A stretch of 61,086 nt of DNA from Craspedostauros australis (Eukaryota), in NCBI GenBank assembly GCA_030167865.1, contig JALAGF010005890.1:1-61086 (forward strand). Direction: 5' to 3'. Positions within the stretch are counted from its first letter, which is position 1. Each line of letters starts with the position of its first letter. The notes under the pieces are model-generated. The model was not told the origin of the DNA and ran no database searches. It saw only the letters and a list, made by a program, of their open reading frames with translations. A program made the position numbers and the translations under genes. Of this stretch, positions 1 to 56,162 are shown piece after piece.

Positions 1-237
1 TCAGGACATTTAATTTTGGCGTTTGACTGGCTGGAACACGTATCCACGACACAAATTATGAGTGTCACAACAATTCATCGTGTTGTGGCTGGTGTCATTT
101 GCTCCGTTCTTCCGTGTGTGCCTGTTCCGGGCATTGGTGGACCTCCACTTGCAACATGGTACTTGCTTGTTCTGGTTTTGTCTCCTGCTGCGTCAACACA
201 ATCATGTTATTGTTTCTACTGTCCAACAAGCTTGGTT
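1..237 (+). repeat. Left terminal inverted repeat (partial)
   Basis: Reverse-complement match to 5962-6255. The transposase stop (260) lies just inside it. Confidence 0.85.
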
Positions 238-259
238 ACGTCTATTTTACAGTCTTTTC

Positions 260-3200
260 TCAGCGGATGCGTTTGCGTTTGCTTTTGACTTGTCTTCCAC
301 TGTGACTATGTTCCACCACGTTTGCAAGTCTTTCGTTCATTCGAGCTTCCGCCGCATCTCTTCGCGACGCTGCCAATGCCGATTCCCAATGTATCTCTCT
401 TTCTTTCGGGGTGGCTGTTTTGTTCAGACCTTTTCTTTTCTTGTTGATTGTTGTGGTTGCTGTATCCGTTCCTTGGTCTTCGTCACTGTTGCCATCATGT
501 TTGTCTGACTCTATGCTCGCAAACAATTCGGTGGACTCCGTTCTTGTGACATTGGGAGGATGTTCATCATAGTTGCCGTGGTCTTCCCTGTCGGTGCACT
601 CTGCATTTTGTTGGGAGACGATGATTGCGGAATCGCTGTCACTGCCAGTTTCGCTGCTGTTTTGATTGGCTCCATCATCAGTCTTGGGATCCTCCATTTC
701 ATCGGTGCTGCTATTTGACGCAACATGTTTGTCTGTGGACTTTGATTTGCTCCCACACTTGATCCGAGGCTTCGTTTTGCCCTTGCTGCTGCTCCTTCCT
801 AGGTGTCTATCGCTATTGCGATTCTTGTTCTTGTCCTTGCCTTTGCCTTGCGTCTTCTGTGCCATCATTCTTTTCTTCTCCTCTGCATGCACCAGAGCTT
901 TGGTTAGCCATGTTTTGTCAGGTAGATGTGCAATCCGATGGCAACAGTTGTGAATCTCCACAGCTTGCTTTCGCTTTGGCACCTTCTTCAACGCTACCAT
1001 AGAGGGGATGCCAAATTTCCTGATGATCTCCTCGGTCTTTGGTGTGAGATTTGCGCATACAGAAATTCCACAGCCAGCACACAACCACTGGGTGCGAGAG
1101 AGGCACACCAAACAAGTGCCTTTGAACTTCTGACAGTATCTGGGGGTATGCTGCCCCTTCTTCATCCTTTGCGTCAGCTCCAGCACTTGCTTGTCTACCG
1201 CTGTGCGCGAGCTGTTCAGAATTGACTGTAGCTTGGATGGACGTTGTGGGGATCCCTCGGGTTGTATGTTGCCATCATCCACTCCAGTGACACCTTCTGG
1301 CACCAAGGCCACTGGGTGACGCTCGGTATGCTGGCCATTGTCGTTTCTTGGTGATTTAGTCTCTTCATTCAGCAGATCTACCACCTTCTTTGCAAAGCGG
1401 CCAATGATGGTTGTCATGGATGTGTTGAAACTCCATGCATGATTCGCTCGATTGCGGTAGTGCTCGATGGACTCATTAGGTTGGAAGAGGCTGCCATCTT
1501 CGTCCTCCCGCTTTGTTGTGTGTTGGAACATTCGGTGAAGGCCAACAAAGACGGTCTGGAGAAGTCGACCGCTCGCCACAGCATTGAGATTTCCCTGTGG
1601 GGGTGGGGCCTCATGTTGGCGAATGAGCCGTGTTGTGATGTCAGATCCGCCCTTGAGTCCATTCCACCATGCACAGCCATAGGGTAGAAATGTCTTCACT
1701 GGCGGTACGGGAAACTCAATCTGTTGTTGGCAGCTTTGCCACAACTTGAGATGATGAAAGAGATCATCACTTCGTAGGTGCCATAGAGTTTTGCTGGCTC
1801 CTCGGAACTTGTTCGTCTGTGGATCGGTATCGAGAAAGTTCGACATGAGATGGCGTGACGATCGTTGTATCTCGTTATCGCAGTCTTCTGGATACGCAAA
1901 CCCCAGCACCAGCCGGAAAATGTCATCCATAACATTCCCATAGTGTTGAAGCAATGTGTCTGGAAATCTGATGGCGATACTGCGGATGATTTCACCATGC
2001 CTGTCTCCTGTCATGTTGGATTGAGAGAACAGGGATCAATGCAAGGAAAGTGTGAGTATTCAGAGCGAATCGTGTTGCAAAATGAGAGAGCGAAATCGCA
2101 GGTCTGTGTGTGATACGTACCAATCACAAGGTGTGCCCCATTCACACCGAACACATACGCGTGGTGCAGCAACTGAATCATCTCAGCATCCGACGCAACG
2201 ACTGCACGAAATCGATCATCTGGTTCTTCGAAGTAAATGTGAGTGGACGAAGGCAAGCGATGAGTTGCATTTGCATGCTTCTGATGATTCTCCTCTGTTC
2301 TCTTCTTCCCTGCAGTAGCCCGTGTTTTCATTTCCACAACAAACACTTCATCGCTTGTGTCATTTGCTGTGCTTCCAACAATAGAAAGAAAGTCAATGGA
2401 AGAGCGCGCGTACAGCTTGTCATCCTTTGCAACCAAACCTGCACGGAATGCGGCCTTGATGCTTGTGTGTTGTCCGCTGATGTCATTGAGATCCAGCGCC
2501 TTCCTCATGAGAGGCTCTTCATTGGTGTGACCAAGTTTGGTGTAGGCATTTGCGTCACCTTTGCAAGGCTTCATGAACCAGGTGATGAGCGCCGATTTCG
2601 CCATGGATTCCAACATCTTCACAAGTTTTGGCGAAGCAGTGCTGGTACCTACCAGAGAGGATTGATCATCGCCCGATGACTCTGGCAACGCAACAATGTT
2701 GTGATCGGTGGTTGTTGCTTCAGTGGCTCTCCCATCCCGATCAGGGATCGTCTGGCGCACGGATGCTGTGGCAGTATCGATCTCTGCCCGTGCCAGGTCT
2801 TGGCTACACGCTCCACTCCTTCGCGCAACAGATCTCGACACGGTTTGTTGGGGATCTCTTTTGTTGTTGGAAGTTGAGCCGTCGGAAGAAGATCGGGTGG
2901 ACTTGTCGGAAGCGTCCATGGAAGAGTCCACACTTAGTGATCCCCTAGATCCAGATGCAGCATGGTCCAGTGCATCAGATGTATCTGATGCACTGACGTC
3001 TGTTTCGGCAAGGTGGAGCTGGTTTGAAGAGTGTTGTTTTGGGAGAACACACTTCGACCGAGTTGATGACGTCTTTGCTGCAGCGCCTGCAGGTGGCACT
3101 TCTCTTGCCTTTGTGCATGCTCGTGTACGTTGCGAACAGGTGGTTGGCGAAGAAGCTTTGGATGCGGACGGGACCTCCGCTGCAGCACGAATACTCGAAC

Positions 3201-5885
3201 GAGTGGATCTTGTTCCAGACTCACGTGTGGATGCTTTCTTGGCGGAAGATGCAGGTGGGTCCAATGTAGCCTTTGGATCCTCGACTTGCTTTCTCCTGGT
3301 GGCCCTTCTGCATTTCCCTGTGCCGCGCTTTCCTTTTCTTGAGTGAGAGGATGTTGCAGTGCGATCAGAAGTGGATGGATTGCGAGGCTTGCCTTCTGCG
3401 GTGGGCTGCTTCTTCTTTGAGGGTGAAGAAGTTGGTGAAGGGATCTTGTTTGGACGATCTGCAGAGACGAGGGTGGAGATCATGGCAGATTTCTGCTTAA
3501 CATCAAAATCCTCAGATAGTCGATCTTTGCAAAGCCTTTGCAGTGTCGAAGGCGTCATCCCATTGTATCTACGATGAAGTCTGTTGCTCGTTTTGACGAG
3601 GGATTTCAGCTTGTTCTTCATTGTTGGAATGGTTCTTTTGTTGTTATCTGCACAGTAGAGTTGTGACAGAGCAGCAAGGAAGAGATGCATCGATTGATCC
3701 GAATCATCTGTCCATCCCTCTACCTTGCGCAACAACTCAGATTCAAATGACAGCTCTGCACACATAGACGAGTCTTTGGCCATGCTGTTGGTTAGCCGAT
3801 GGTAGCACACTTTGGCTTCCACCAGGGCCTGTTCCGATGCAAGTTCATCTGACAGTTGCTGCTCCATAGATTCAGGATTGATCCCAAGGTATCGAGCAAC
3901 AGCCATCCATGACTGCTTGCGGAAATGCTGACTGTTCTCAGGTTTGCACCACTCTGTGCAATCAAGGACAGTCTTGAGTAACTTGTAGGTCGTCGAACTT
4001 GTCAGTGCAAACTTGCGAAGGAAGAACCAAAGTGTATCTCCTTGACAACAGGTCAACCCTTTCACTCGGAGAGCGTGAATGCAGCCCTTCCAGTTGTTCA
4101 CAACCTCTTGCTCCTTTTTCTTTGCTTCAGAAGCAGCCTCTCTGGCCTCCGCCGACTCTTCATCGCTAGATTGTCCTCCTTGAGTCTCGCCAATGATGCT
4201 TTCATCCATCAGGTCAGCTACAGCGTAGGCTCCAGACACCACTGCTGATTTCCGTGGGCAGTGATATAGGAGATGGAAGAACTGTGGCAGTGTGTCACTC
4301 TGACGGTCGACACCAGCCTCACACTGAAGCATCTCGTTGTATCGCTTTTCGTCAGCAGGGTTGCGAAGTGTCAGATCCCAGGAGAAATGCTGTGGCTGTG
4401 AAGATACGGTTAACACCACTTTCCCGTTGTCACGGTAGGCCACACATTCAAACTCCTTTCCGTTCAGCATGCTGGAAACAGCCACCCAAATACGTTTGGG
4501 TCCCCTCTGTTGGACGAAGATTTGCTTCCCATTGATGGTTCCATGGGCTCCATAACCAAATGGAATAGATCCGGTTCGCTTGTGGGTTCCCTGTATCCCG
4601 GCACCAAGTTCAAGCAACTGCTTCATAAGCTTGAGATCGATGAACCCACGATCCATCATTAGGGTCATGTCATCCAGAAGCTTGTCATGGTTGAGAAACT
4701 GTTGGTTGACCAATTCCATCGTCGCTTCGAAGTTGTCATCATGTCGTTCACAGATGAAGCCGATTCCACATGGCATGGCTGATGCAGTGCGGACTCCGGC
4801 AATTGCAACCGGACTGTGACAAACAGTTGGACAGTGGATGAGAGGCATGGTGAAATGGTTAGACATGATCCATGAAGGTACAGACAAACAGGAGAACACT
4901 CCAGATGACCTGTGAAAACTTACCCTGGTCTGTTGCATTGGACATGGCGTTTGATAGTCAGTCCGCTGGTGTTTCCCTTGCTGTGTGAATGGACCTTGTC
5001 ATCATCCAAGGTGACCACACATTCCGTTTCCATGTCTCTCAGAGCTACCTTGTCGAAAAGTTGGTTGGAAGCCTGCTGCAGGTCGCTCCAGAAGTGCCTC
5101 CTTCGCTTATTACCAGATTGTGCCTCTTTGTTGATCCGCTTCCAAAAGTTGCGGTACTCCTTGTTGGTTGGGAAACCAGGGATGCCATCGACCGACTCAA
5201 TATCGAACAGTTCCTTGACAGTGCAAGCACGCTTGACCTGGTAAGCAAATGCCCACATGAATTGATAGTACTCTTTGGGCGTGAATTTGACTGGAGACAA
5301 AGCAAAGGCATTGCGGTAGATCTCAGATTTCTCATCAAAGAAAAGATCAATCAATCTTGCAACATCTGGTTGTGGCATCTCGCACAGATCCACGGCATTT
5401 GCACGAAGCTGTCCAACCTCTTCTTTCAAGAGATTGTAGGCTGCAGTGCGTGCACGGCCGACTGTGACCTTGAATTCTTCCTTTGTGGGGTCGAGGAGCC
5501 TCCATTCAAGATCCATGGATGCCAATCGCTCTGTTTCTGTCATGGATTCTTCCTCTGTGGCCACAGGTGATGGCTGATCCCATCCTTCTGTGTTTGGAGT
5601 ATTTGTATTGTTGGTTGTTGGCCGGAGAGGACAAGCCAAATCTGGTAAGAGCTCAGCTGGAGTTGTCCCAGCTCCAACATGGGCGTCAGCTTGATTGTAG
5701 ACATCCTTGTTGATGTTGTTGGCAGCAATGGAAGCCATGTTGGTGGGAGCATCCTCGTCATCATCACTGTCATGATCGCTGGGTGGATCCACAATCCAAT
5801 CATCTTCCACATCAGAGTCGTCACTGTCGTTGACTGTGTTCACAGCGGTGGTCTTGACAATCAGTGGTCGAGAACAGGACACCAT
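260..5885 (-). CDS. piggyBac-type DDD transposase with internal YqaJ/lambda-exonuclease-like domain and C-terminal cysteine-rich domain; exons 5885-4924, 4813-2121, 2007-260 (~1,800 aa)
   Basis: Introns 4923-4814 (GTAAGT..CTAAC..CAG) and 2120-2008 (GTACGT..CAG) join three ORFs in frame. Transposase motifs: TLDDDK, MMDRGF..GTHKR, WWNGLKGGSD and C-terminal CLVC..T.WLCAGC..C..CCH..H. YqaJ motifs: QGDTLWFFLRKFALTSS, LGHTNEE, GLV..SSIDF, EMKT, QLLHHAYV. Start codon uncertain. Confidence 0.85.
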
Positions 5886-5961
5886 CTTGAAGGGTGTGTG
5901 AAGTGGTGAAATGAAAAGGGGACGAAGGAGGTTGTGTTTGCTGTTGTGACAACGAGAAATC

Positions 5962-6255
5962 AACCAAGCTTTTTGAACAGTGGACGCACAGCAGCATGGC
6001 CCTGCGGACGAAAGAGGAAACCGAGCCAGAACAAGCAAGTTCCATGAGACAAGTAGCGATCCGCCTACACCCACAACTGACGCACGTGGAGACAGATGTT
6101 GCAGCAATGGACAGATTGACATTATGGATGTGCAGATGGCAAGAAAGAACAGAGCAGATGGCACCAGCCACAACACGATGAATTGTTGTGGCACTCAAAA
6201 TTTGTGTCGTGGATACGTGTTCCAGCCAGTCAAATGCAAAAATTAAATGTCCTCA
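5962..6255 (-). repeat. Right terminal inverted repeat (the part with a mate in the window)
   Basis: Reverse-complement match to 1-237. The inner part is degenerate and carries an indel. Confidence 0.85.
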
Positions 6256-6357
6256 GGAGGACAGATAAGTTTTCTGTCTTCCTGAGGACAGTTACGATGC
6301 ATGTCAAAAATAAATGTCCTCAGGAGGACAGATAGTGCTATCTGTCCTCCTGAGGAC
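6238..6357. repeat. Two tandem ~67-bp subterminal units, each a hairpin
   Basis: 6316-6335/6338-6357 is a perfect 20-bp inverted repeat (GTCCTCAGGAGGACAGATAG-TG-CTATCTGTCCTCCTGAGGAC). 6248-6265/6273-6290 is an 18-bp inverted repeat with one mismatch. Confidence 0.9.
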
Positions 6358-10579: not shown

Positions 10580-10646
10580 GTATGGAAGAAGCTCAGCAGC
10601 AATCACATAATCGATACTATAGCTAGAGAGGAAGGAAGAGACGACC

Positions 10647-13600
10647 ATGTCAGGAGGTTTTGCACCGTTCGGGAGCCAACCGGCGCAAGGCGGTGGCTTT
10701 GGCAGCGCTGCTTCAGCTTTCGGGCAAGGTCAGGCACCGGCTCCTTCACCTGCATCCAATCCTTTTGGTGGTGGAAGTAGCAGCGGCTTCGGCGGAGGTG
10801 GATTTGGAAGCGGTGGTTTTGGTGGTGGCGGTGGCTTCGGCGGAGGCAATCCGCAGCAGCCATCACAGCCACAGCAACAGCAGCATCCAACCGGAGGAAC
10901 CACAACAATGTTTGGGACATCCAGCAACATTGTAGCTGGAAGTACGTCCGCTGCACCTGCGATGGGAGGAGGCGGCGGATTCAGTGGTGCTAGCAGCAGC
11001 AGTGGTGGTGGCGGAAATCCACGATCGTGGGGATCGTCAGACCCATCGCGAGAGCAGCAGCAGTTTCCAGGCCCCAGCACGAGCTCGGGGTTTGGAGGTC
11101 AGGCGCAGGCTGGAGGTGGCTTTGCTGGAGGATTCGGCCAAAGCTCGCGACCAACGCAAGCCAAATCAACAAGTGCCCCGCCGAACAATCCATTCGGTTC
11201 CAGCAGCAGCAGCAGCAAGCCATCCAACCAACCTAGCAGCAGCGATGGCGGCCCATTTGGAGGTGGTAGCGGCGGCGGTGGATTTGGCACTTCGAGTGGC
11301 GGGGGTGTAAGCAGTGGTGGAGGTGGAATGGGAGCAGGGGCACCATCGTCCATGGCATTTGGCGCCAGCTCCAATATTGTCCAAGGTTCTGCCGGGGGTG
11401 CGCAGACAGCGGGATCGTCGTCATGGGGGCAGCCATCCGCAGGAGGGTTTGGTGCCAGTGAAGCCGGAACGAACAGTAGCACCGCCGGTGGCGGCGGTTT
11501 CGCAACACCATTCGGTCAGCCCCAGCCAAAGTCGGCGTCGCCATCAAGGCCATCTTCGTTTCCACCAGCAGCCAATTCATCACCCTTTGCATCTGCGTCA
11601 TCCAGCAGTCAAAACAACGGTCATTCGAATCAGTCAGGCCACCACGGCAATTTGGAGTGGACGAAGGGCAGCTCGAGCAGCAGGAACAACGATGCAAGCA
11701 GACGGTCCAATCGAAGTCCCACACCAGGCGGATCGCAGGACCACAGACTCACGGAGATCAACACAGACCTTGAGGGACTCAAACGCAAGCTCAAAGAGAA
11801 GCAGAGGAAGAAGATGGAAAGAGAAAGGCAGAGACAGCAAGGTGGGAATGTCTCATCTCCGAATTCCAGATCGACCTCGCCTGTCCCTCAGCCAGCAGCA
11901 TTCACTGGCGGAAACGCCAAGGGCCGCGACAAGGGACGGCATGTGCACTTCGACAACTCGGCTGCCGCATTGAACGCGCGGAGTGCTAGATTCTCTTCCT
12001 CCGCAATGCCGCAGCCGGCGAGCACCAATGGATCATCCTCCGGGAGATCCGCAGCATCCAAGTCGCAACCTGAACAAGGGGGAATCCCGGGGGCCATGGG
12101 TGGGACTCGCACCAAGCGTGAAGAGTTGGGAAGTGCGACAGCGTTGGTCGGCACATGCATGGAGATGTGCCCCGATGATGAACTCGATCGAAGGCAGCGA
12201 GAGAATGACATTCAGCAGCTGGAGATTCCGATGCCAGGCCAATTGCACCCGAAACATTGGACGATCCGAAACACCATCGTCAAGCGTTTCCGAAGATCAG
12301 CTGCGGATTACAAGCTCGATGTGCCGGAATGGGTTCGTCCACCGGATGTGCTGGAGAAGACATGCTGCTACCTCGAGGAATGGGTGATGGTATGTTCTTG
12401 GTGGACAATTGCAATCACCAAGGCTCGCGCGCATGTTACATTGTGTTTTTTATTTCGTGTCAGGACGGCGTTGCCGCATCTCATTGCATGCGCTCAACTC
12501 AAGTGCTCTTGAGTGTGCGACTGTCTCAGCAAACGTGCTCGTATGTTTGAATGCCCTACCATCACAATACTGTAACGTTCCACCTCTTTCTTTTCCTTGT
12601 TTTGTATCCCATTCTTCTTTGACTTCCACTTTCTACCTTGCTCTTCCTTCGCAACATTTCTACGGTACCACACAACCATCATCAATTACTGATCACACAC
12701 GCGTGAAAGGAGCGGGACAGACAAGGTCCAGATCCCCGCGTTCCCAGCGGGCAGGCTCCGGCATCGCTGGACGTATATCAGTTTATTTGGGATCGAACCA
12801 GAATGATCCGCAAGGATTTCACTTTGCAAAACTACATCGGCACCGGAGGCCAATGCGATGCTCGGGCAGTTCGATGCCACGAGAGAATCGCCCGCTGGCA
12901 TATCATGTGCGAGCATCAACTCAGTCACCTCGATGACTTCGTCACCATGCAGAGCCAACAAAACATCCAGGAACTTGGACAGACCATGAAAACACTGAAT
13001 CAGTTTTATGACGACACGATGAAGCGATGCACTGTGGAAGTACCAGATAAGGCTGGCAACGAAACGCGCAAGCAATCCGACTGGTCCTTCCAGTGCTCGT
13101 CCGACATCGTCAACGGCAACAACCCGGTCGACTACGACGGTTCATCGCTGAACAACACCATCGATGCCTCACAAGCATCCGGCAAGAACAAATGGATCTG
13201 GAAAGGTGCAGTGAATGCCGACACGCACGGCATCGCGGAGGCAGAGATGCGTGGTCTGTACATCCTCCTCACCATGAACAACGAGGGTGGCATGGAGGTG
13301 CTGAAGTACGCATCTCGTTTGTATCGTGAGCAACCACACATCTACAACTCCCGACCCATCCAGCTTGCCCTCAAGATCTTCAAGGTACGTTGTTCGTGTG
13401 GCTGATACTGCGATCATTCTGCTGTTGCTGTCATTGTGTTATTATTGGCGATAGTTTTAGGCCATGTGCATGGGCATGCGCATGTGCAGCATAGCAGAAC
13501 GAGAGAGTGAGAGAGCGAGATGAAAATTCCACATACAGCCATGCAGATAAGCAAACATACACTCACGTATTGGCATGGTATTGCCATTTGAACGACACAT

Positions 13601-16600
13601 CAACACAACGTCAAACAATGCAGGCCAAGAAAGAATTCAACTACGCGAGGTTCTTTGCATACCTGCGATCGTCGAGAACGCCGTATCTATTCGCGTGCAT
13701 CATGTACAAGCATGTCGAGTCCATGCGCAAGGTAGCATTTCGGATCATGGCTAAAACATTTGGCGCGAAAAAGAAGGACACAGGCGAGAACATCTACGAC
13801 GCGTACCCTCTGTCGAGGCTGACAGCCTTGCTCTGTTTCGAGGGGTTGGAAGAAGCGAGGCAGGCATGCCAGCACTTCAACATTTCGGTGCGACTGGTGG
13901 AGGTGTCATCTCAGAGCAGAGAGCAACGCAAGGGCAAGCTCGACGTTATCTTTTGGCGGCAGAACGAGTTCCGAGAACCGAAAGACCCAAAGAAGGGCAG
14001 CATCATGCCGCTGCGGCCGTGGAAGATGGTCAAGACCATCGAAGGCAAGCTGGGCGGCGCAACAAGGTTGGCCGTTTGTCGAGGCAGTGCAGGATTCGAG
14101 GCCGTCTCCATGACACGATCGAGCAGTTCATCCAAAACAACACCAACGAAAACAAATGTAGCGAACGCCGCGGATGACATGAAAATGCAAGAGCTGCTTC
14201 AGAAGCAACGGTTGGAGCTCAGGCGGCTCAGCTCCATCCCAGATGCTGCAATGCAGGTACCAACGAATACGGCTACTTTTGGTGGCAGTGGTGGCAACAT
14301 CAACCTCGTATCTGCCAGTGCGCCATCCCAAATGGTGATGAAGTCACCAGCCAACTCTGCACCGGCGGGTTCGCCTGCACCTGTTGCGCACCAACAACGG
14401 CAGGTCGCCATTCCGTCAGTTGCTATGAAGAATCCAACCGTAGCAAGGAACTCCACAACAGCCGCGACCCAACAAGGTTCTCCATGTCCTCCACCCCCAG
14501 GTGCATTGCAAAAGCAACAGAGCGGATTCATCGCGACTCAGCTTCCCTCAGTTCGCCAGCCGCCGCAACAGCAGGCGCCACCGAAAAAGGCTAATCGTAA
14601 ACCCCCACCAGCAGCAGCCGCAACAGTAGCAGCGACTCCTCCCAAACCAGCTGCGCCACCACAGCCATCACCGCAAGAAATAGCCCGTCGCAAGCGTATG
14701 GAGCAGGAAGCATTGAGGAAACAGGCCGAAGAGCGAGCCAAGGCACTTGAATTGCAACGACAGATGGAGAAGAAGAGGAAAGAGGAGGAGCTCCGCTTGA
14801 AACGCGAGAGAGCCAAGGCAGCTGCCATCGCTCGGCAACAGGAGGCTGAACGAAAAGAGAAAGAGAGGCTGCGTTTGGAAGCGCTCCGCAAAGAACGAGA
14901 ACAAGAGGAACGCTTCCTTCGTGGCGAAATGGAACGCAAGCAGACTGAACAGATGGAGATTGACAAGGAGCGCGAATGTACCACCGTGGCAGCGCGTCGC
15001 TTGTTGGCGTGGCGTCAATGGAAGCATCATGTTGCTGCTTTGACCGACCATCAGGATCTCCCGCAAGACATGGATATATCGACGGGGATGGAGTCTCCCA
15101 CGAAGTTGGCATCGCCCCGGTTGAATTCCTACTTGCACACGACATTCCAGGAGTCACGAAAGCATGGAAGCGGTCGCAACGAGCTCGTTGGAGGCAGAAA
15201 TAACAGCAGCCACAGCCAAGCCATTGTGCCAAGATCTCCAACAGTCCAGAGCGTCCTGGAGGAGCTGGTGAAGCAGGATCCGCACGAGATCGATCCAACG
15301 AGCGGCTGGTTGTACCACTTCGCGTCGAACCACTTCGGCGGGCGCAAATCGACGTTTCTGGTCAAGTTGGGACTCGTGCTTCCGCGGCCACAGAATCATG
15401 TCCAGGAGAGCATGCTGAGCTTGACTAGGATGTGGCTGGAGTCCCGATTCCAGCCCGAGATGATACAGTCGCGAGTGGCATCGAACGTTGAGATTCGATC
15501 TCACGTGGTGATCTGCGACGAGTCAAACGTGGATGAGGATTGCAATATCCTGGTGGTCATCGTGCTACCTCCATGTGACGACTCTTCCTCAGACCAATTC
15601 CGTGTCAGCAAACGCATTGCCAGCTTGCCTTCGATGGTGGCATTGCGGTACCTGATGCTGACAGAAGATATCCTGCCGAGGGAGGGTGCCGCAGCTGCAG
15701 CCGAAGTCACGCGCAATGCAGGCCTCACACCAAGCTATTTCGACGAGGCTCTGTCGGACGCAGCATCCATGCTGTTTCGGGAATACATGACGAACCCGCA
15801 TCAGGTGGAAGTACGACGGTGCAGCGAGATCGTGGCCGCGTCTCTTCGCGGCATCACATGGAAGTATTCCTCCAGCAAGGACATGAATGAAGATCAGGCT
15901 CTTCTCGGCACGGTCCGAAAGGTGCTGGACAAGCTCTCTACGCAAATCAAACAGGTGGCTGCCGTGCAGCAGCGCACCTACGTGGCGTGGCCAGCTCGTG
16001 CATTCATGTCCAACAACAACCAAGTGGAGGATTATTTTGGGAACGACAAGCATCTGCCTTCGGCATGGATGGAGACGACGAGATATGAAACCTTGGAGGT
16101 GGATGTGCGGCAGATGATGGAAGTGTTCAAATTGCCCTTCTGCAAGGTGGTGTTGAAGTTGCTGGAGACGTCGGGGATGTACTTCAAGATTCAATGTGAC
16201 GATCTCTTGCGCTTCGGGAACTACCGCAAGTGCCTCGACACTGCTCTGGCGGGGTATCTGCAGGGCGGGCACGTCCAGAAATCGAACCATGGTGTGGCAT
16301 ACTTGCCAACCTCGCAGTTCCGGCACCTGATCGACTCCGCAGTGTCGCAAGTCGTTGCTGAAGATTCGGCGATGCAGAGCAAAGCCATCGGGTTTGGAGG
16401 AGATCTGCCAAAACCAGCACCACGCATGGGAACGTACTATGGGCTGCGTGACGACGACGACGACGACGATGATGACGACGACAGAGAAGCTGAAAACAAT
16501 GACGAGAAGAAGAACAAGCCAGACGACAGATCAGCTGTGGCTACAACTGCAATCAACGGCCAAAGCACTGCAGCAACTATTGAGTCCAAGAAAAGATCCG

Positions 16601-16782
16601 CAACATCGGCGTACGACTCCGAATATTCAAATGAGCAACGGCAACCCAACGGAGACCAATCCAAGCGCTTCAAGCAACCCAGGGTCGACCCGTACTCGGA
16701 ACGATGCATCTCGGAGAGCGCGCAATTCACCCTGCAGCTCAAGAAGTACTTGGAAGGAGAAGGCTCGACCCCAATGTTCTAG
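10647..16782 (+). CDS. SAC3/GANP family mRNA-export factor; exons 10647-12389, 12710-13384, 13624-16782
   Basis: LVGTCMEMCP, VKRFRRSAA, VRPPDVLEKT, YQFIWDRTRMIRKDFTLQ, HERIARWHI, EAEMRGLYILL, NYARFF; FG-rich N-terminus; in-frame GT-AG introns 12390-12709 and 13385-13623. Confidence 0.9.
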
Positions 16783-26597: not shown

Positions 26598-27707
26598 CCT
26601 TCGATCCTTCTATCTTGAGCCGGTGTATGGTAGCGTACTGCGTCATGCGTCATGCAATGCGCAATGAGAGATGTGTGGTGCGTTGTGGCGTATAGGAGTG
26701 TGGGTTGGCGCAATGACAGTGCAACCCTTCAATTGTTGGCATACCAATACCATGCACTACCTATACAGCGAGGATGGCCAATGCGGGCGCACCAATGGTT
26801 GCTGCAGTGAGGTGATGGGTGTGTCTCCGTCGTTGGTGTTGGCTTGACTCTGTGTCGTGTCTCCCCATTCGTTGTTGGTGAATGGCGACGTTGAGTCGTG
26901 GATAGCAATTTCATGAACAATCGCATCGACCGCTTTGACTAAAACATTATTCAACCGTATTATAACGTCTTGTGAACAATCAAACGGAACGTCTTCCACG
27001 CTTCTGATTGGCTCCACGTACATCTCAGTACCATCGGCTCGTGACACAACAAAGCCGATTTTTCGGTGTCGGAGACAGACACAAGTGCACAGAGAAACAC
27101 ACTGCAAACTTCACTCCAGTGCGGAACTTGATGCCGTTGTTGGTGGTGTGCTTTTTTGCGCTCGCCCTCGCCTCTTCCGTGCGCGCAGCCATGCTGGTCA
27201 CTCGTGGTTTTTGGTGGCAACCGTCGCTGTTGGCAGCAGGTTCTTGTGGGTGTTGCCTCTGTCGCGGTACAAAAAGCTACTGATCATGCCGTACGAAATC
27301 CGAAACGAAGGGGAAAATCACGTGGAGGAGCAGCAAAAGAGATCCCACCCGAATGCCACCACGCAGATGTGATCCTCTTCTCAACAAGGAATGAAGAGAA
27401 AGGAACAAACGAACAAGGAGAGACAACGCAACAAACTTCCATCCCAAACTTCACTTACCGCGGCACAATCGCGACCAACAGCTCTCAATCTCAATCATCC
27501 CTCCGACAACACCATCCACAACAACTGCGCAAAATAGCACGACCCAATCCACACGAAGAGAGCGAACGAGTAACCGCCCGCCCAAGAGAAAGAGCCATCT
27601 CCCTCCTCTTCCAACCAACCAGGTGACTGCCCAACCATCGCTCACTCACCAACCAACCAACCAACCAACCATTGCAATAACTTCACACCATCAGGCAGAC
27701 ACAAAGC

Positions 27708-30441
27708 ATGGCCAACGCAAAGTTCATCCTGAAGAGGACCAACGCGGGCAGCACACGCAACGGGAAAGAGGGAAGCGAAACGGAAACGTCCGAAGACACG
27801 GCATCACCATCCGCATCGCCAAAGCGTGGCAATAGCAACAGCCACACCAACAGTAACAGTAACAGTAACAATAACACACTGCAACGAACCCCAACAAAGG
27901 CAGGATCCCAAGCCGAGGCAGAAGTGGCGGCAACACTCGCGGGAGCAATTATGAGCATCGAGAAGATCAATGGAAGTCCCAGGGCCAAAATCGCACAAGC
28001 TGGTGAGGCGAACAACGCAAGGCCGAAGGTGAACGTCCAGGTGAACGTCAAGGTGGAGGCAGAAAACAGCTCCCAAAGCAACAACAGCAACCAAAGCAAC
28101 GAGGAGAAGGGAAAGCCACCAGCCACCATCATCGCCGAAGATCCCTCACCGTCTTCGCCGACAAAGCCGAAGCTGGAGGAGAACACCACACCGAGCACAG
28201 CCTGCACAGAGCCGACAACGTCATCCCCCGTCTCCGACGATTCGGACGACGACCCGCAATCCCAGTCTCAGCAACGGCAGCAGCAGCAGCACAGCGGCCT
28301 GCTCTCCATCAGCCAAGGCTTCAGCCAATCCGATGAGCACATCCGGCAGCTGGACAACGAGGGCGCCTTGAAGCAGGTCATCGGATCGCAGTCCATCCTG
28401 TCTCAGGAGCTCCTGGGCAACTCGCAACGCACCATGGAGGACGATTCGAGGCAGGGCGGCATCGCCCTGGGCTACTCCGCCAGCCAGTCGCAGGCCATGT
28501 CGATGTCCATGTCCATGTCTGTGGGTCGCCGCCTGGATCTGCTGTCGCAGCAGAGCGTTGGTCTTGCGCCGCTGTCGCAGGACAGCAGGGCGGGGATGGG
28601 GCTCATGCAGGAAACACCAGGACTGGGGCTCATGTCGCAAGAGAGCAAGATCGCCCAGCTGGACAGCTACAAGATCGGGGCCTCGCAGACCGAGTCCCAG
28701 CTGCGTCGCAACATCGAGAGGGAGTTTGCTGAGTCCCAATTCACCAACAGGAGCAGCGCCAAGCGCGGGTTGGACGGCATGGACTCGCAGAACGTCTCCC
28801 CGTCCAGGCAGCTCGCCCGCGCCGCATCAAGGCTGCCGGGCCTCAATCTGTCCCAGAGCAGCCAGAACACGCCCTTGCGCAGTGATGAGAACTTCGGTTC
28901 CCTGCTCGACGCCGTCCAGGTCATCACGGAGCAGGAGGAGATCAACAGCAAGCTCCATGACTTCGTCCACAACTCCAACAAACGCAGCACGGACATCTTC
29001 GAGAACGAGCTGCGGGCAGGCTCTCCGACAAGCCCCATGACATCGCGTGCCAAGAAGGACGCCGACACCGTCGCCTTCTCGTTGAAGCGCAGTCCCAAAA
29101 AGCCAAAACCCAAAGCACCATCGCCAAAACCCAAAGCACAAAGCAAGGCGAAGGCAGGCGCGGCTGCGACCCCAAAGATCACTCCGACAAAGAAGCGAAA
29201 GGCGGGTGCTGACAAAGCCGGATCCGCTGAGAAGCCAAAGACGCCGCGCTCACTGTCTCCGACCAGGAAATCCGTGAAAAAGAACGAGCTGCAGAAAGCG
29301 CAGGAGATCGCCAAACGAGCAGCAGCCTTGGCAGAGCGCACAGCCAAAGACCCGGACATGACCAAGAAACTCCTGTTGAGTATGGCGTTGGTGCGCATCA
29401 ATCCAAGAACGGCACCGTCCGTCTGGCCCGCCAAGGGTTCCGTCATTCCAGAGGGCTTCTTCTGGGCCCATTATCCGCCGCTCGAGGGAGGTACGTTGTG
29501 CTCCAGGAGTGTTGTGAGACATGTCGCAACACCATCTGGTAATCCCATGCGTCGTTGCCTTCGTCGTCATCTTCGCGAAATGAAACGAAACAAAACTGTG
29601 TCCACTCACTGAATGATGAATCTCCGTGCTGTTTGCATCTTCTCATGTTCACACGGCTCGTGTGATGACCACGTCGCACACTCTTGTCGTCGCCGTCTTC
29701 TTCTTTCGCTCGTGCCAAACGCAATTCGCAGTGCTGAAAGATCGCATGGCAGAGTATTACGAACTGTCCACAACCAAGTGCCAGTCCGCTCACCAGCAAG
29801 CATTCAACAACGAGCTGGTTGTGCTGGTGCGCAAGGAGGCCACAGAACAAGGCTGGGAGTTCGACGACTCGTTCAGCGACAAGGTGCTGCGAGATCGCAT
29901 CCGGTGCTACTACAAGACGCACATTCAGAACGCCAAGAAGCGTCTGCGAACGATGGTGCGCAACCCGACCAAGAAGGCCAACGCGAGGCACCTGTGCGCC
30001 CATCTCGATCTGATCGAGAAGCACCAGGCTGAGGAGTCGCAAAAGAACAAGGCAGCAGCAGACGCTGCCGCCGCAGCCAAGGCCTTGGAGGCAGAGACCA
30101 GCAAGCTGCCCTCGCCAACGACTGCTACTACAACGGTGATGGCTACGCCTCCTGTGGCGGTAGCGACTGCGGTGGCAGCGCCAATGGTGACGGTCACGGC
30201 CACCGTGGCCGCCATGCCGGAGCCCACGGTATCTCCGAAGAGAAAGATGAACCAGGAGGACTCCGCGGTTGCCGATGCTGCCAATACCCCTGCGCCCGTC
30301 GCCAAGAAGGCCAGAACATGTGGCGACAGTGAAATGAGCAAACCTTCAGCACCCGCACCTGTCAAGGTGGAGCAGCAGAACGTCATAACCATCACTCCCG
30401 GCATTTCTCTGTCACAAACCAAGGAGGTTGCTTCTGTCTGA
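27708..30441 (+). CDS. Hypothetical nuclear protein with SQ-cluster region and C-terminal helical domain; exons 27708-29490, 29732-30441
   Basis: Intron 29491-29731 (GTACGT..CAG) joins [41 protein letters not shown]; basic NLS-like stretches. Confidence 0.8.
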
Positions 30442-31490: not shown

Positions 31491-33670
31491 ATGGCAGCCT
31501 TCAACCGCCCCACAGAGGCGACGTACGAGATCCATGAGAACGTAAAGGTGGATACATTAGGTGCGTACTATTCTATAATAATATAGTATGGAACTACGCT
31601 TTGATGTCGGGAACGGCTGCATGCTGTTCTTTGGCTGCTGTTGATGATAATGGGCGACCTGTGTTGGACCATTCTGGGGGAGATGCAACATTGCCGACCA
31701 CTCAATCATTCAACCACTCGCTCACTCACACCATTCCCTCGTTGCTTTCTTTCTTTGGTGATGCGGCGCCGATGTATTCAACCTTCACAGACAATGAGGA
31801 TCACACCTTCTGGTGAGTGCGACGGCGGCGCGATCGCTCATGTCAGACGATTGGCTCCAATTCAACAGAGCTATCATTTGGGAAATTCCGTTCGGACCGA
31901 TGCTTCTCGTGGCACACAGCTACACAGCCACACGAGCAATCTGCCGTGCTCGACAATCATTCTCGTTTCTCACTCTCTTGTGTTTTTCCTGTACCCCACT
32001 CTCCGATTCCAATCGCAATACATGCCACACCGTACCACACCATCTCATCATCGGCCTATTGATTGGCCTGTTGTGGTGCCATACGCGTACTCTCACCACG
32101 TTCATGGTGCACATCATCTCCTCCCACTGCGCGACATCATTCATCGCTCTGCCTTTGCAGCGGGATCATGTTCCCCATCAAATGCAAGGACCTCCTGCCG
32201 CTGGATCATCTGGTCATCAAGAGCATCGCGGTGCGTGGCTACTTGGGTCCACTCACTGTCTGGGTCAGCAAGGAGATCATCGAGGAGGGCCGCCAGCATC
32301 AGCACCAAACCAGCGACCAACTGGAGTTGCGAAGGAATACCTCGCACAAGTTCAAGTTGAAGGCAAAGCACTGGGACAAGCTCTACGAGAAAACCCACAG
32401 TCCATCCGTTCGCACCTACTGCAGCTTGGAACTCGACAAGCCCATCGTCCTCAAACCAGGCCAAGTGCGCGCCATTTACATACACTCCACCCTGCCTGGT
32501 GATCAGGCCATCGTCTACGACAACAGTCATTACCACGGCAGCAAGAAGCGCTATCAGGATGACAAGCTCGTCATCCACTCCGGCCGGGCTCACGTCTCGA
32601 CGGAGGTCTTCGGACGACGGCCCATCTGGGGATGGGGCAATGCCTGGAGAGAGCGCCGCGAGTTCGTCGGCAAGCTGGAGTACGGCGCCGTCTACAAGCT
32701 GTGGAATCCGCACATGCACCTCAAGTTCGGCGGAAACTTCCAGGAGGGCGCCCGCGCCTTGATGATGTGCCAGCGAAGGTGGGAATCGCCCTGGAGCAGA
32801 CTCCCGGATGAATGCATCTACTACATCCTCAACATGTGCCGCTGGGACTGGTTCGAGGATAACAGCAAGGGCATGAAGTTGCGCAGGAAGAAGGAAAAGT
32901 CCAAGCTCAAGGCCATCCTTCAGCAGAAGCAGGAAGAGGATAAGAAGGAGAAAGCAGCGGCGGCAGAGGCGGCAGTTCAGCAAGAAGAAAAAGAGGACGA
33001 CGGTGACAAGAAAGTATCCGCCAAACCCGCTGGAGTGGCAGGCATGATTACTGCGGCCGTGCACGCGGCAGGTACTGTTGCTGCGGTTGCTACCGCAAAA
33101 CCTGCCATGTCAGCCATGTCTGGAATGCCCCACAGGACGCCATGTAGTAAGAAGCGAAGTGCGGATGATATGATCGTTGCCGACAACCAAAAGCCATCCT
33201 CACAAAGCAGTGATGACGACGACGACGATGGTCAGGGAGGAGAAGATTCTGATGACGACATCGATGATGAATGCTTTGAAAGTGCGGATGAAAGATTTTT
33301 CATTGATGTGGAACAGGGCGAAGAAGAAGATCACGAGGATCAAGTAATTGTCGCTGCCAACGCCGATGACTCTTCATCCGACGACGACGATTGGTCGGCC
33401 GACGATGGATACCACAGGGCCAACATCCGAGCGTTCGACTTTGATGACGTCGATTCCGACGTCAGCGACGATGAGCAAGACGACGAGGGACCTCAGAGCG
33501 CTCGGTCGCAGCGTCAGGATTGGTTGCGACGCCAGTTCGCCCGCATTCATGTGCTGCGGGCGCTGGGCAACATGGACGACGACGATGTGAGGGTCGTCTT
33601 CCAGCACTTGGATGACAACGACGAGTACGGAGAAGACGACGATGATGAAGACGAAGACGAGGGATACTAG
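31491..33670 (+). CDS. Hypothetical protein with acidic C-terminus; exons 31491-31560, 31791-31812, 32161-33670
   Basis: Two GT-AG introns and a 22-nt exon restore MAAFNRP..VDTLDNEDHTFCGIMFPIKCK..; strong GC3 codon bias. Confidence 0.75.
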
Positions 33671-34024
33671 ACAAGGCGACCACAGCTACAACAGTGACTT
33701 AACAACAAACATGCGAGCACATACTCGTGGTTTGGCAACTCTGCTGAAAAAAGAATGTAAAATAATATCATAGTTTAGTTGAACAAGTAAGTGAACATGA
33801 CAAATATTATACGAGACAGTTGCAGAGATGTATATTCAAATGGAAGACAAGGATCAGTTGAACGAATTCCTCCTTGAGGTTACACTTTCCAACACGAGCT
33901 AGAGTCCTCCTCCGCAGAGTCTCACTGAGTCGCTCAACGAGTATGAAGAGTTGTTGCTAGATTATTGTTGGTATTGTTGTGGTTGCTGCGGTTGTTGTTG
34001 CTATGGTGCGAGTACGCAGCTGCT

Positions 34025-37000: not shown

Positions 37001-37777
37001 AATGGCCTGGTTGCAGCACTTGGGATGCTCGACGCCCAACGACTCGTCGAGACAGCGCATCATGCTGCGGAATGAATTGTCGGCGATGGCGTAGACGTGC
37101 GGCGGGAGGTTCTCCTTGGTGTTCTTCTCCGCCTTGTCCCAGTAGCGCTTCATGTTGGTCTCGCTGTAGAGACCGCGCACGGCCTGGAAGGGGTTGAGGG
37201 CCAGCAGGACGGGCCCCGTGAAGGTGTAGATCTTGTCATCGTTGTAGCGGCTCTGCAGACACTCGACGACGGCCGGCTCGTGCAGATGCGTGAGGGAGAT
37301 GAGGTCGTTGGGGCAGATGGGGTTGCCCTCCTGCGATAGCTCGTAGTCGTTGGCGAGCACAACGTCGCCGTCGGACATGGCGCTGGCCGGGAGGGTGGTT
37401 GGCGTGCTGCCGTTGTCATCGATGCGCACGATGATGTTGCCCTTGGAGGATTCGATCATGGAGCCCATCTTCCACCCCCACTGCTGGTTGCGTCCCTCGT
37501 GGCATGCCGGGATTCCGATGGAGCCGATGTCGCTGTCGTTGTCGGAGTAGTCTCTGTGCGATGAGAACGATGCCACGGAGGCGTTGGTGTTCATGGAGAT
37601 GGTGGTGGTGGTCGAGGAGCCGCGGTACGAATGCTGGCCCAGGGAGCTGAAGGACCCCTGCCTGCTGAGCTTCTCCTTGATGGAAATCCGAGGCGCCGCC
37701 GATGTGATGGCGGATGCCTTCACCCACACTCTGGTGCCATTGTTGGCATTCGAACTTGGTGGGAGTGGAGGCGGCAT
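34025..37777 (-). CDS. Myosin heavy chain (motor domain, one IQ-like motif, short tail)
   Basis: GESGAGKT P-loop, LESFGNARTVRNDNSSRFGK, DIFGFE, NSFEQLCINYCNE, HYIRCLKPN, GKSKVFLR, and IQ-like LNAVFRMYLAR. Confidence 0.95.
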   Translation of the reverse strand: MPPPLPPSSNANNGTRVWVKASAITSAAPRISIKEKLSRQGSFSSLGQHSYRGSSTTTTISMNTNASVASFSSHRDYSDNDSDIGSIGIPACHEGRNQQWGWKMGSMIESSKGNIIVRIDDNGSTPTTLPASAMSDGDVVLANDYELSQEGNPICPNDLISLTHLHEPAVVECLQSRYNDDKIYTFTGPVLLALNPFQAVRGLYSETNMKRYWDKAEKNTKENLPPHVYAIADNSFRSMMRCLDESLGVEHPKCCNQAILVSGESGAGKTVTTKFVMKYLAALSQRAGNQPSEKRAYLKVKEQRTMTPPRTSGVGGGWKTGWSGTLRKTSSRENDLGLSSVTCLGGPGSLNSIEAKVLQSNPILESFGNARTVRNDNSSRFGKFIEIQFTRTGRLVGAKIDVYLLEKVRLVTQASGERNYHIFYEILSGAMGAAELRKFFIASTANVDDFRITANGTYDRRDGVCDRDTFGSLKTALNMMKFTAEEQSDVFSIAAILLHASNLTFHDMDQECALDEQNIHLEPVCHLLGVTPDDLNQSLCHFCITAGRDTHVRRSLNADQAEKGLEALLKATYGALFDYLVGRINDSIAFQQYQLDENGEPVPVPQEMSPQACIGVLDIFGFESFVVNSFEQLCINYCNETLQQQFNAFVLKNEQAEYEREGIDWSFVEFPENQDVLDLISKRGTGILSTLDDTCRAPGPSDKSFALSVYKKCKDQNRFSASRKQTALLKFSVHHYAGPVEYTTDGFVEKNRDELPKETAELLQHSLNPFIRLLADVIENGRNEEAAKLIDTPHKARRQDSSVGRTTVGGQFRRQLKLLRDKVDHMSPHYIRCLKPNDELVPDHFDQAAVAEQLRCGGILEAVRVARAGFSNHYQHEDFMRRYRCLAWKELKNKSYGMGARSSYGGGFAGAWNSSPQRSSTKNSGFRGVYMQQKPHTAEKNRLEEQPKVDPRPLCKELIKILCRKLQQVELEENRDDDSENSQTQDAPMTPPAAKAKSYSYQAATPPPAWSKRAAPGTKSGLPPVPYSVNNSTTNTPKSSKRLTPWEKPQTTFTKPPSSPAPAGKTSNRGSSSNASADWAKTGIQLGKSKVFLRHKAFEVLERIRSQEQLKSANKLNAVFRMYLARVAYLHVRDAVRHSMANLHAFQEEYKEGKEQDLHEYEDERLGKFFRNRTSYNSGDSVLLVDQWAKQVRASIHNPVPRHEWGNQHNPSKPFRWVLSEGLWKKNHDDDPEEEVADHQQYHQQPEHIM

Positions 37778-55869: not shown

Positions 55870-56162
55870 AAGAGTACTCCACCAATACATCCTTCGATTC
55901 CACGTGGAACTTCGTGAGACCAACGACCATGTTGTGACACTTGTTCTCAATTTTTCGTTTCGCGATCTGCGACAAAACCCAGATGCGCCAACCAACAAGG
56001 AACAGCCACAGACACTGTTCATGTTCACGCTTGTGCATCGTCAGGATCACAGCTTCGGACAGGAGGATCACCATCACCATCATTGCCATTGTTGCCAACG
56101 TCGCTACTACCATCAATATTACCACAGCTATCGCCAACGCCGCCATCATCAACAACAGTGCC

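Follow-up and report, generated by a model that had tools for sequence, protein, structure and literature searches.

At the start of a 61,086-nt stretch of Craspedostauros australis DNA (assembly GCA_030167865.1, contig JALAGF010005890.1, forward-strand positions 1-61,086; hereafter the window), three minus-strand ORFs at 4920-6194, 2011-4998 and 260-2035 raise the questions of whether they make up a single transposase gene, to what kind of transposon such a gene would belong, and what a nuclease would be doing inside its product. The ORFs are pieces of a transposase gene, and joining exons 1-3 yields a spliced frame that is free of internal stops and has 5,400 coding nt for 1,800 aa. Exon 1 (4924-5885), which encodes aa 1-320 and contributes two bases to codon 321, is followed by a phase 2 intron of 110 nt (4814-4923, GTAAGT...CAG), exon 2 (2121-4813), a phase 1 intron of 113 nt (2008-2120, GTACGT...CAG) and exon 3 (260-2007, coding from 2007 to 263, with the stop codon at 262-260); these and all features of the gene given below lie on the minus strand. 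The intron-free protein is aligned gaplessly over both splice junctions by 16 of 16 full-length relatives. The first-pass annotation had proposed that three apparently frameshifted ORFs are joined by two introns of about 110 nt into about 1,800 aa; judging from the frame and these alignments, they are indeed best read as one gene with two GT..AG introns.

Exon 1 encodes an acidic N-terminus, a helical region resembling DNA-binding or dimerisation domains, and the first catalytic strand, where the DDDK motif (aa 294-297; 5006-4995) provides the first catalytic Asp (D294-D296; 4998-5006). Exon 2 encodes the second Asp, D375 of DRGF (4651-4653), a beta-rich insertion domain (exon-2 residues ~72-147; 4372-4599), the N-terminal motif of the nuclease, a linker of helices, an insert that is disordered, and the larger part of the nuclease core. 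Exon 3 contributes the end of the nuclease, the third catalytic Asp in W1333-N-x2-K-G-G-S-D1341 (1640-1666, with the D1341 codon at 1642), a second helical region, a domain rich in Cys and His, and a charged tail of 221 aa that is absent from the relatives. The core columns D294-D296, K297, D375, R376, W1333, N1334, K1337 and D1341 are identical in all 17 aligned sequences, and in the model of a relative the DDD triad sits on the expected elements, with D1 in a beta-strand, D2 where a strand ends and D3 where a helix begins. The D1-D2 and D2-D3 spacings are 81 and 966 aa in the window protein and 83-94 and 627-719 aa in 14 relatives. The RNase-H-like DDD core is broken after the beta-rich insertion domain, just before the helix of the third Asp. 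The D2-D3 insert is kept in these 14 relatives, so it is not peculiar to the window copy, whose extra ~300 aa are due to a disordered Ser/Ala/Thr-rich stretch. In the Cys/His-rich C-terminal domain (926-1114), C1517, C1520, C1528, C1531, C1536, C1574 and H1579 are each identical in 17/17 sequences; PF13842 (zf-Tnp_2) matches this domain in one of 20 relatives at a sub-threshold E of 0.017, and the family profile gives weak PHD and B-box matches in the PDB (best E 0.052).

The nuclease signature starts with Q-x4-W-x3-R-x4-T-S-S (3994-4044), whose spacing is identical to that of Q19...W24...R28...T33-A-S35 in the 5'-phosphate pocket of lambda exonuclease. This 17-residue motif occurs a single time in the six-frame translation of the window; 14 of 20 relatives have the form Q-x4-W-x3-R-x4-[TS][AS]S, and all 20 have a looser one. 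The part of the nuclease core encoded by exon 2 (2121-2631) carries G1082/E1086 (G...E, 2532-2518), S1126/D1128 (S.D, 2400-2392), E1148/K1150 (E.K, 2334-2326) followed by R1152, and Q1201/H1204/H1205 (Q..HH, 2175-2161) with E1198 nearby, while the C-terminal part of the domain (1733-2007, exon 3) runs until about aa 1310 when aligned with the relative that was modelled. W583, R587, S593, G1082, E1086, D1128, E1148 and Q1201 are identical in 17/17 aligned sequences, K1150 is kept in 16 and S1126 in 15 of them, and Asn replaces the E.K lysine in relative P0008. In the relative's model, the nuclease Asp adjoins a strand and E.K lies inside the following strand. The published passages on lambda exonuclease place Glu85, Asp119 and Lys131 in the active site, and Trp24/Arg28 and Arg28/Ser35/Ser117/Gln157 in the 5'-phosphate pocket (PMC7496540, PMC3239189). 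The catalytic Glu, Asp and Glu-x-Lys of this type are present here as E1086, D1128, E1148 and K1150, and motif spacing and alignment ranges indicate an equivalent 5'-phosphate pocket. As modelled, a complete PD-(D/E)xK nuclease of the lambda-exonuclease/YqaJ type interrupts the DDD core. The motifs agree with the first-pass annotation, which had read TLDDDK at about 5006, DRGF at about 4653 and KGGSD at about 1642, spacings of about 80 and 965 aa with an ordered set of YqaJ motifs (all recovered in that order) between D2 and D3, and a piggyBac-like Cys-rich tail at about 1135-925, where the Cys/His cluster spans 1114-926.

Lambda exonuclease and LHK-Exo (YqaJ, PF09588) are free proteins, whereas the domain described here is nested in another enzyme. 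It is also split after the N-terminal motif by a helical/disordered insert of 240-490 aa, its Asp-to-Glu hairpin is 10 residues longer, and the partner annealing protein is absent from the element. The nuclease is split by a helical linker that can be recognised as SAP-like in some of the relatives, and in the window copy it is split further by a disordered stretch of ~280 aa (2647-3498, exon-2 residues 439-722, pLDDT below 50), which is Ser/Ala/Thr/Arg-rich and largely without counterpart in the relatives. Lambda exonuclease is a toroidal trimer, which gives it processivity; such a trimer may not form for a domain nested in a transposase.

Sequence profiles detected neither domain. Pfam DDE_Tnp_1_7 (PF13843) had no match in the three window ORFs (E<=1), in 24 relatives (E<=0.01) or in 20 relatives (E<=10), and neither the window pieces nor any of 44 relatives matched YqaJ (PF09588), for which lambda exonuclease as a positive control scored 2.7e-30. 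Neither piggyBac nor lambda exonuclease came up when the PDB was searched, be it with individual sequences or with the profile of the family, hhalign gave no match between the nuclease-core alignment and the lambda exonuclease sequence, and the best sequence hint for the nuclease was sub-threshold (PDDEXK_4, E 0.18). Both Pfam matches had been expected, and because they are absent the lineage is more divergent than was assumed. By contrast with the profiles, structure recovers both folds. With the AF2 model of relative P0049 (pLDDT 86.8, pTM 0.76), Foldseek finds piggyBac at E 4.9e-4 and lambda exonuclease with a probability of 1.00, and the window's own exon 2 model gives the same two folds in a search against 48,161 chains. 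The best 50 structural matches of the P0049 model are piggyBac, Tn5, other IS4-type transposases and integrases. These predicted models bear out the initial reading of a piggyBac-type transposase with a YqaJ nuclease inside its catalytic core, and support a piggyBac-type core and a lambda-exonuclease-type fold that are recognised by structure with no sequence-profile match; on the same models, we consider the nested arrangement of the nuclease within the DDD core very probable.

At E<=1e-3 the protein family comprises 130 representatives, of which 13 reach E<=1e-10; its named members come from diatoms, and the family also occurs in marine sequence collections. The order of motifs is the same in the full-length relatives, and the architecture is common to the whole unannotated family, with the DDD triad, the nuclease residues and the 5'-phosphate pocket nearly invariant. 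Our literature search found no published description of a piggyBac-type core with a nested nuclease.

The gene is flanked by long terminal inverted repeats at 1-238 and 5960-6256. Their core arms, 3-116 and 6140-6253 (114 nt), are 92% complementary and similarity extends to ~240 nt; in the left repeat it is weaker beyond the core arm, with one 55-nt indel, and reaches about 238. The first nucleotide of the stretch already falls within the left repeat, which puts the true left terminus out of view; an assembly that broke off at a repetitive element would look like this. On the right, three copies of a 34-nt unit around the palindrome GTCCTCAGGAGGAC (6234-6357) form subterminal repeats, among which lies a perfect 20-nt hairpin (6316-6335/6338-6357); they are candidate transposase-binding sites, and the outer end of the element is at or beyond about 6357. 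The interval between the inverted repeats holds the transposase gene only, and other genes would not fit. No second copy of the element was found within the 61-kb window, and no related locus turned up when metagenome and viral contigs were scanned. Taken together, the locus probably represents one copy of a DNA transposon that belongs to the piggyBac structural type; its frame is intact, long inverted repeats bound it, and the nuclear genome around it is eukaryotic and diatom-like.

In such an element, the DDD core would carry out piggyBac-type chemistry on the inverted repeats, with a 3' nick, a hairpin and strand transfer. Because the Trp/Arg/Ser/Ser/Gln 5'-phosphate pocket is kept, the nuclease most likely digests 5'-phosphorylated strands in the 5'->3' direction. 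It would act at the double-strand ends left by excision, and we favour the donor flanks as its substrate; resection of these flanks would destroy ligatable overhangs and leave 3' tails, which would lead to homologous recombination and to the element being copied back from the sister chromatid. We offer this role, donor-flank resection favouring homologous repair, as a tentative proposal. The nuclease could instead act on the transposon ends, as part of the excision chemistry, cutting or degrading the 5' (non-transferred) strand or a 5' flap after hairpin opening, in the manner of TnsA beside TnsB, a possibility that we regard as fairly doubtful. In Tn7, a DDE transposase does work on the transposon ends with a nuclease of the PD-(D/E)xK fold, but TnsA and TnsB are two separate proteins, and TnsA is a cutter that resembles restriction endonucleases, not a lambda-exonuclease type with a 5'-phosphate pocket. 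That pocket is better suited to an exonuclease starting at an end already present than to an endonuclease making one, and degrading the non-transferred strand would bring no obvious gain for integration. It is the location of the nuclease that speaks for a substrate at the transposon ends. The structural passages on piggyBac describe Y439 and N440 as holding the hairpin loop, with the flap leaving the active site from that segment (PMC7351741). The insertion point adjoins these residues, the nuclease lying between the insertion domain and the third-Asp helix, in the segment that, in piggyBac, contacts the hairpin loop (PMC7351741). Nesting, as against the separate protein of ISL2EU, likewise speaks for a nuclease acting in cis within the transpososome. 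ISL2EU is, like the element here, a eukaryotic DDE transposon with a YqaJ-type exonuclease, which, as had been correctly noted, is a separate protein there; the passages on ISL2EU place it in a second ORF beside a PIF/Harbinger-like transposase with a THAP domain and state the function of this extra ORF as unknown (PMC4482050, PMC4122938).

As to the transposase itself, comparison with piggyBac (6x67) and piggyBat (9c0f) shows a D2-D3 spacing of 101 aa in piggyBac versus 966 aa here, the extra length being the whole nuclease domain; the inverted repeats here are much longer and the DDE_Tnp_1_7 match is absent. Neither the window protein nor the 14 relatives have the D2-D3 spacing of about 100 aa that characterises piggyBac. 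The lineage might be a separate, unnamed superfamily in the IS4/Tn5-piggyBac structural class, with a likeness to piggyBac that reflects the shared class only. We judge this unlikely. The protein has a piggyBac-fold RNase-H-like core with an insertion domain and flanking helical domains, and exon-2 residues 1-147 align with residues 293-429 of piggyBac 6x67_C. For the diatoms Phaeodactylum and Thalassiosira, passages on piggyBac-like elements describe these as transposase-bearing and weakly related to piggyBac (PMC2806351), and the Phatr3 repeat table has 65 PiggyBac entries (PMC5859163). The passages on these elements mention no nuclease domain (PMC2806351, PMC5859163); compared by description only, these elements may belong to the same family as the window element.

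A domesticated host gene or an immobile relic, whose nuclease would be a structural remnant, could account for the single copy in the 61-kb window, for the divergence of the inverted-repeat arms (8% of positions and the 55-nt indel), and for the long disordered insert and 221-aa tail, both absent from relatives. Such an origin is nevertheless quite improbable, as the flanking inverted repeats are kept, the frame is intact across 1,800 codons, the catalytic residues of both domains are all preserved, and the stretch begins in the left repeat, as might be expected of an assembly interrupted at a repetitive element.

KolobokE resembles the element in joining a lambda-exonuclease-like PD-D/ExK nuclease and a DDD/E transposase in one polypeptide, and the same source reports Kolobok from the diatom Fragilariopsis cylindrus (PMC9587614). 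Kolobok also makes TTAA duplications, but membership of the KolobokE lineage is extremely improbable, since the passages on these elements place the nuclease on the downstream side of the transposase domain, not between the second and third catalytic residues, and give Kolobok a C/DxxH signature, as in hAT, P and MuDR, and a terminal Glu (PMC9587614), whereas the invariant D2-D3 columns of the window family contain no C/DxxH, the third residue is Asp, and the 50 best structural matches are those listed above.

Returning to donor-flank resection, chewing back of the ligatable donor overhangs after excision would leave homologous recombination with the sister copy as the way to repair the break, and the element would thereby be restored. 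That a cut-and-paste element is in this way made effectively replicative by its own 5'-phosphate-dependent exonuclease seems to us somewhat unlikely. If true, this solution would have been reached on three occasions, nested in the piggyBac-type element, appended in KolobokE and as a separate ORF in ISL2EU, which would point to a general, so far unexplained end-resection requirement of some DNA transposons.

Three long ORFs in differing frames occupy the minus strand of the window between 260 and 6194 (4920-6194, 2011-4998 and 260-2035). Each frame change falls on a GT..AG segment of the same strand, 4923..4814 (110 nt, starting GTAAGT and ending CAG) and 2120..2008 (113 nt, GTACGT to CAG). Translation from the ATG at 5885 with both segments removed runs through 1,800 codons (5,400 coding bases) to a stop, as proposed in the first-pass annotation, which had joined the ORFs through two introns of about 110 nt into about 1,800 aa. 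When the predicted product is aligned with 16 full-length relatives, none of them shows a gap at either junction and joining at the second junction rebuilds a conserved motif, which makes the three-exon gene model very likely correct. A frameshifted pseudogene is ruled out, since both frame changes are such segments and the alignment is gapless once they are removed.

Exon 2 served as the query of a full HMMER scan against 1.84 billion representatives, which yielded 130 proteins at E≤1e-3; 13 of these reach E≤1e-10, but none E≤1e-30. Many of these proteins measure 1,150-1,380 aa and align to exon 2 in three separate places. Members with a species name belong to the diatoms Seminavis robusta and Mediolabrus comicus and are recorded as "unknown" or "hypothetical" proteins, and the others come from environmental contigs of 4-7.5 kb. 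A word-based search with the family profile recovered only 4 proteins, and with exon 3 and the nuclease core as queries it found no homologues. Full-length matches share one order of motifs: DDDK, DRG[YF] about 85 aa further on, [ED]W...R....TSS, a helical stretch, GH.LE, DS[IV]D, E.K.R, Q..HH, WN..KGGSD and a Cys-rich tail. Among 20 full-length members with about 24% identity, the invariant columns correspond almost exactly to these motif residues. In the alignment including the window protein, D294-296, K297, D375, R376, W583, R587, S593, G1082, E1086, D1128, E1148, Q1201, W1333, N1334, K1337, D1341 and seven Cys/His are identical in 17/17 sequences, while K1150 (16/17) and S1126 (15/17) are nearly so. 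The first two catalytic Asp positions of the transposase core (D1 and D2) are 81 aa apart in the window protein and 83-94 aa apart in 14 relatives; D2 and the third (D3) are separated by 966 aa and by 627-719 aa, respectively. The window values agree with the roughly 80 and 965 aa estimated at first pass.

Recurrent Pfam matches in the relatives are confined to two regions. The helical stretch inside the nuclease has a SAP or Rho_N match in three proteins (P0012, P0081 and P0059, residues ~590-710), the best among 44 relatives having an E-value of 1.4e-8; the similar-looking stretch of the window copy has no SAP/Rho_N match in Pfam. The tail of the relatives matches weak zinc-finger models, with the piggyBac-type zf-Tnp_2 in 1/20 (E 0.017). 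In P0008, a full-length member, the Lys of the nuclease-core E.K is replaced by Asn and the DDD residues are kept; judged from this substitution, its nuclease may be inactive.

Lambda exonuclease is a clear member of the YqaJ family PF09588 (2.7e-30), and its residues 19-35 read Q-G-D-x-x-W-x-x-L-R-x-x-x-x-T-A-S. At 4044, the window protein has this pattern with equal spacing, sharing the Q, G, D, W, L, R, T and S. In all six frames of the window the pattern is found a single time, and among the relatives it is present in 14/20 in a strict form and in 20/20 in a looser one. In the window protein, G-x3-E, S-x-D, E-x-K and M-x-Q come in the order in which lambda exonuclease has G81/E85, S117/D119, E129/K131 and M155/Q157, in line with the ordered set of YqaJ motifs initially read between D2 and D3. 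According to the published descriptions, lambda exonuclease holds the 5' phosphate with Trp24 and Arg28 and has its active site at Glu85, Asp119 and Lys131 (PMC7496540); the phosphate pocket comprises Arg28, Ser35, Ser117 and Gln157, highly conserved in the family, and Arg28 corresponds to Arg12 in LHK-Exo (PMC3239189). In the structural alignment of the relative P0049 with LHK-Exo, the model from residue 446 onward is placed on the chain from residue 5 onward. Provided that the first aligned residues are ungapped, W449 and R453 of P0049 would thus fall on LHK-Exo Trp8 and Arg12, all residue equivalences to the two exonucleases being derived from motif spacing and alignment ranges and not from residue-level superposition. 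The family differs from lambda exonuclease in three respects: 240 aa of helical sequence are inserted behind the N-terminal motif (more, and in part disordered, in the window copy), the hairpin from the Asp to Glu-x-Lys is 10 residues longer, and the nuclease has no Pfam match.

The first-pass annotation had expected both piggyBac and YqaJ matches at the profile or structure level; these were obtained with predicted structures, whereas the Pfam and PDB sequence profiles gave none. In Pfam, no transposase or nuclease family matched the three window ORFs, and no such model matched any of the 44 relatives (24 + 20). Searching the PDB with the three exon products using phmmer gave chance matches only, and the family profile (A1) found neither piggyBac nor lambda exonuclease among PDB sequences, only weak zinc-finger matches. 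The hhalign comparison of the nuclease-core alignment (A4) with the single lambda exonuclease sequence gave a meaningless E-value of 0.32. The protein atlas provided no usable match, and a genome search for PF09588 returned lambda itself as the sole match. A composite regular expression for the C-terminal nuclease motifs, with ill-chosen spacing limits, recovered the window protein and 3/20 relatives and missed lambda exonuclease itself.

We modelled P0049 (1,196 aa) with a 72-sequence alignment, and the resulting structure has a mean pLDDT of 86.8 and a pTM of 0.76. A Foldseek search of the PDB, a check of the kind suggested at first pass, placed the Tn5 (E 1.9e-4) and piggyBac (E 4.9e-4) transposases on top, followed by lambda exonuclease with a probability of 1.00; Mimivirus R354, herpesvirus SOX, Dna2, Cas4 and MGME1 appear lower in the structural list. 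The transposase matches cover most of the model: piggyBac 6x67_C (match values 24.4 and 4.1; 370/478 residues, model range 68..1036), piggyBat 9c0f_C (22.9 and 3.9; 355/466, 68..1026) and Tn5 3ecp_A (17.4 and 5.1; 305/458, 87..1011). The nuclease matches lie within these ranges, with lambda exonuclease 1avq_A at 435..914 (14.4 and 3.6; 209/228) and LHK-Exo 3syy at 446..884 (13.2 and 3.3; 181/194). Since residues 68-434 of P0049 number only 367, the 370-residue piggyBac match must span both sides of the nuclease, and its being drawn from both flanks places the nuclease inside the transposase. The model places these proteins' conserved acidic residues at the positions that both folds require: D219-221 in a strand, D302 at a strand end and D945 at a helix start for the DDD sites, and D751 beside a strand with E770/K772 in the following strand for the nuclease. 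Two separate genes or a chimeric gene model are ruled out by the motif order, conserved in single ORFs of the relatives, and also by the P0049 model, in which the DDD core closes round the insert.

Exon 2 of the window protein, modelled with 89 sequences, has a mean pLDDT of 65.7, a value that reflects the disorder of residues 439-722, with ordered parts at 80-95. In the structural match, its residues 1..147 align to piggyBac chain residues 293..429. The Trichoplusia ni piggyBac has its catalytic domain at 263-457, an insertion domain at 372-433 and the triad D268/D346/D447, and its Y439 and N440 hold the hairpin loop in the segment that matches the nuclease insertion point (PMC7351741). From the alignment range and these domain limits, the nuclease enters directly after the insertion domain and directly before D3. 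The two models thus support the architecture first proposed, a YqaJ-type nuclease within a piggyBac catalytic core. The result is a striking triple nesting, in which the transposase core encloses a nuclease that in turn encloses a linker.

The gene lies between inverted repeats, with core arms at 3-116 and 6140-6253 (114 nt, 92% complementary). In pairwise alignment a weaker inverted similarity with one 55-nt indel continues as far as ~238 at the left end and 5960 at the right one. A 34-nt unit built round the palindrome GTCCTCAGGAGGAC lies just beyond the core right repeat in three copies (6234-6357), one pair of which forms a perfect 20-nt hairpin. The first 13 bases of the window already belong to such a unit; the left terminus is therefore outside the window, and the left end probably carries 34-nt GTCCTCAGGAGGAC units too. 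Self-BLAST found no second copy of the element in the remaining 55 kb of the window, and no related loci were found with P0012 and P0002 in metagenome contigs or with P0138 in viral contigs.

Around the element lie ordinary nuclear genes of a eukaryote, compactly arranged and with few introns, which encode SAC3/GANP, a PP2A-type HEAT protein, FUN14, myosin, transporters and mTERF. The SAC3/GANP domain is split over two long plus-strand ORFs ~1 kb apart, 10623-12512 and 13495-16782, covering profile positions 1-71 (N-terminal) and 203-287 (C-terminal), which suggests either a single gene containing an intron or, between the ORFs, an insertion or a fault of the assembly. Opposite the minus-strand myosin motor gene (33947-37975, a 1,316-aa ORF) runs a 1,042-aa plus-strand open frame at 61% GC that is probably a compositional artefact. 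Assembly gaps are marked by N runs at 53069-53118 (50 bases) and 57483-57614 (132 bases) and by single Ns at 8367 and 8387, the larger runs falling where the window has its lowest GC (0.455-0.476, 52-58 kb). The ORFs 55938-56987, 59117-60700, 27681-29612 and 32063-33670 are long and have no Pfam match at E≤1e-5, and 57742-58707 is another of the window's long ORFs (a group of 321-643 aa). Those at 55.9-60.7 kb, flanking an assembly gap, could be part of a further repeat or mobile element.

Nucleases of the lambda-exonuclease type have been linked before to two further DDE superfamilies of eukaryotes. In ISL2EU the nuclease is a separate protein, as noted at first pass, encoded by a second ORF whose role is stated to be unknown (PMC4482050, PMC4122938), and in KolobokE it lies downstream of the transposase domain (PMC9587614). 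Kolobok itself is ruled out for the present family, which lacks the C/DxxH signature, has Asp as the last catalytic residue and structurally resembles piggyBac and Tn5. The piggyBac Pfam model failed and the D2-D3 spacing is not the usual one; with the fold and triad of piggyBac, and a tail that may be of the same type, the element is best classed as a variant, a lineage of piggyBac-type transposases whose core encloses a nuclease of the lambda-exonuclease type. Phaeodactylum and Thalassiosira have elements described as "weakly related to piggyBac" (PMC2806351), and diatom piggyBac-like elements are counted in the Phatr3 repeat table (PMC5859163); these may well be the present family, but a nuclease is not mentioned in the relevant passages. 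Among the titles and abstracts listed in full-text searches of the non-subscription literature, we found no description of a nuclease inside a piggyBac-type core.

From this architecture and the conservation of both active sites, we infer how the protein might work. The DDD core presumably performs piggyBac-type chemistry on the inverted repeats. In piggyBac a palindromic internal repeat is bound by the CRD (PMC7351741); by analogy, the Cys-rich and helical domains here would bind the subterminal palindromic repeats. With its 5'-phosphate pocket intact, the nuclease would most simply be a 5'->3' exonuclease starting from an existing end, and excision would expose 5'-phosphorylated ends of two sorts, at the donor flanks and at the opened ends of the transposon. 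We tentatively consider that it may act on the donor flanks, where resection would remove the complementary overhangs behind seamless piggyBac excision, leave 3' tails and direct the break to homologous repair, so that recombination with the sister chromatid would restore the element. P elements offer a comparable case: the long 3' overhangs left by their excision probably favour template-directed gap repair. With a slightly lower probability, the nuclease may instead work on the transposon ends, processing the 5' strand or a flap as TnsA does beside TnsB; in favour of this, the insertion adjoins the hairpin-binding segment.

The nesting is unusual. The family, common in diatoms and represented more than 100 times in the database, is widespread but lacks annotation: all Pfam models miss it and it is recognisable by structure only. 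piggyBac is valued for its seamless excision, an outcome that would probably be changed in a natural relative with an end-resecting nuclease beside the hairpin-handling site. The element provides a direct test of how a transposase may dictate the repair pathway at the donor site, and a single polypeptide with clear catalytic residues in both domains is convenient for separating the two activities by mutation. The family offers a tractable route to the question of why a nuclease that resects ends was taken up by several lineages of DNA transposons.
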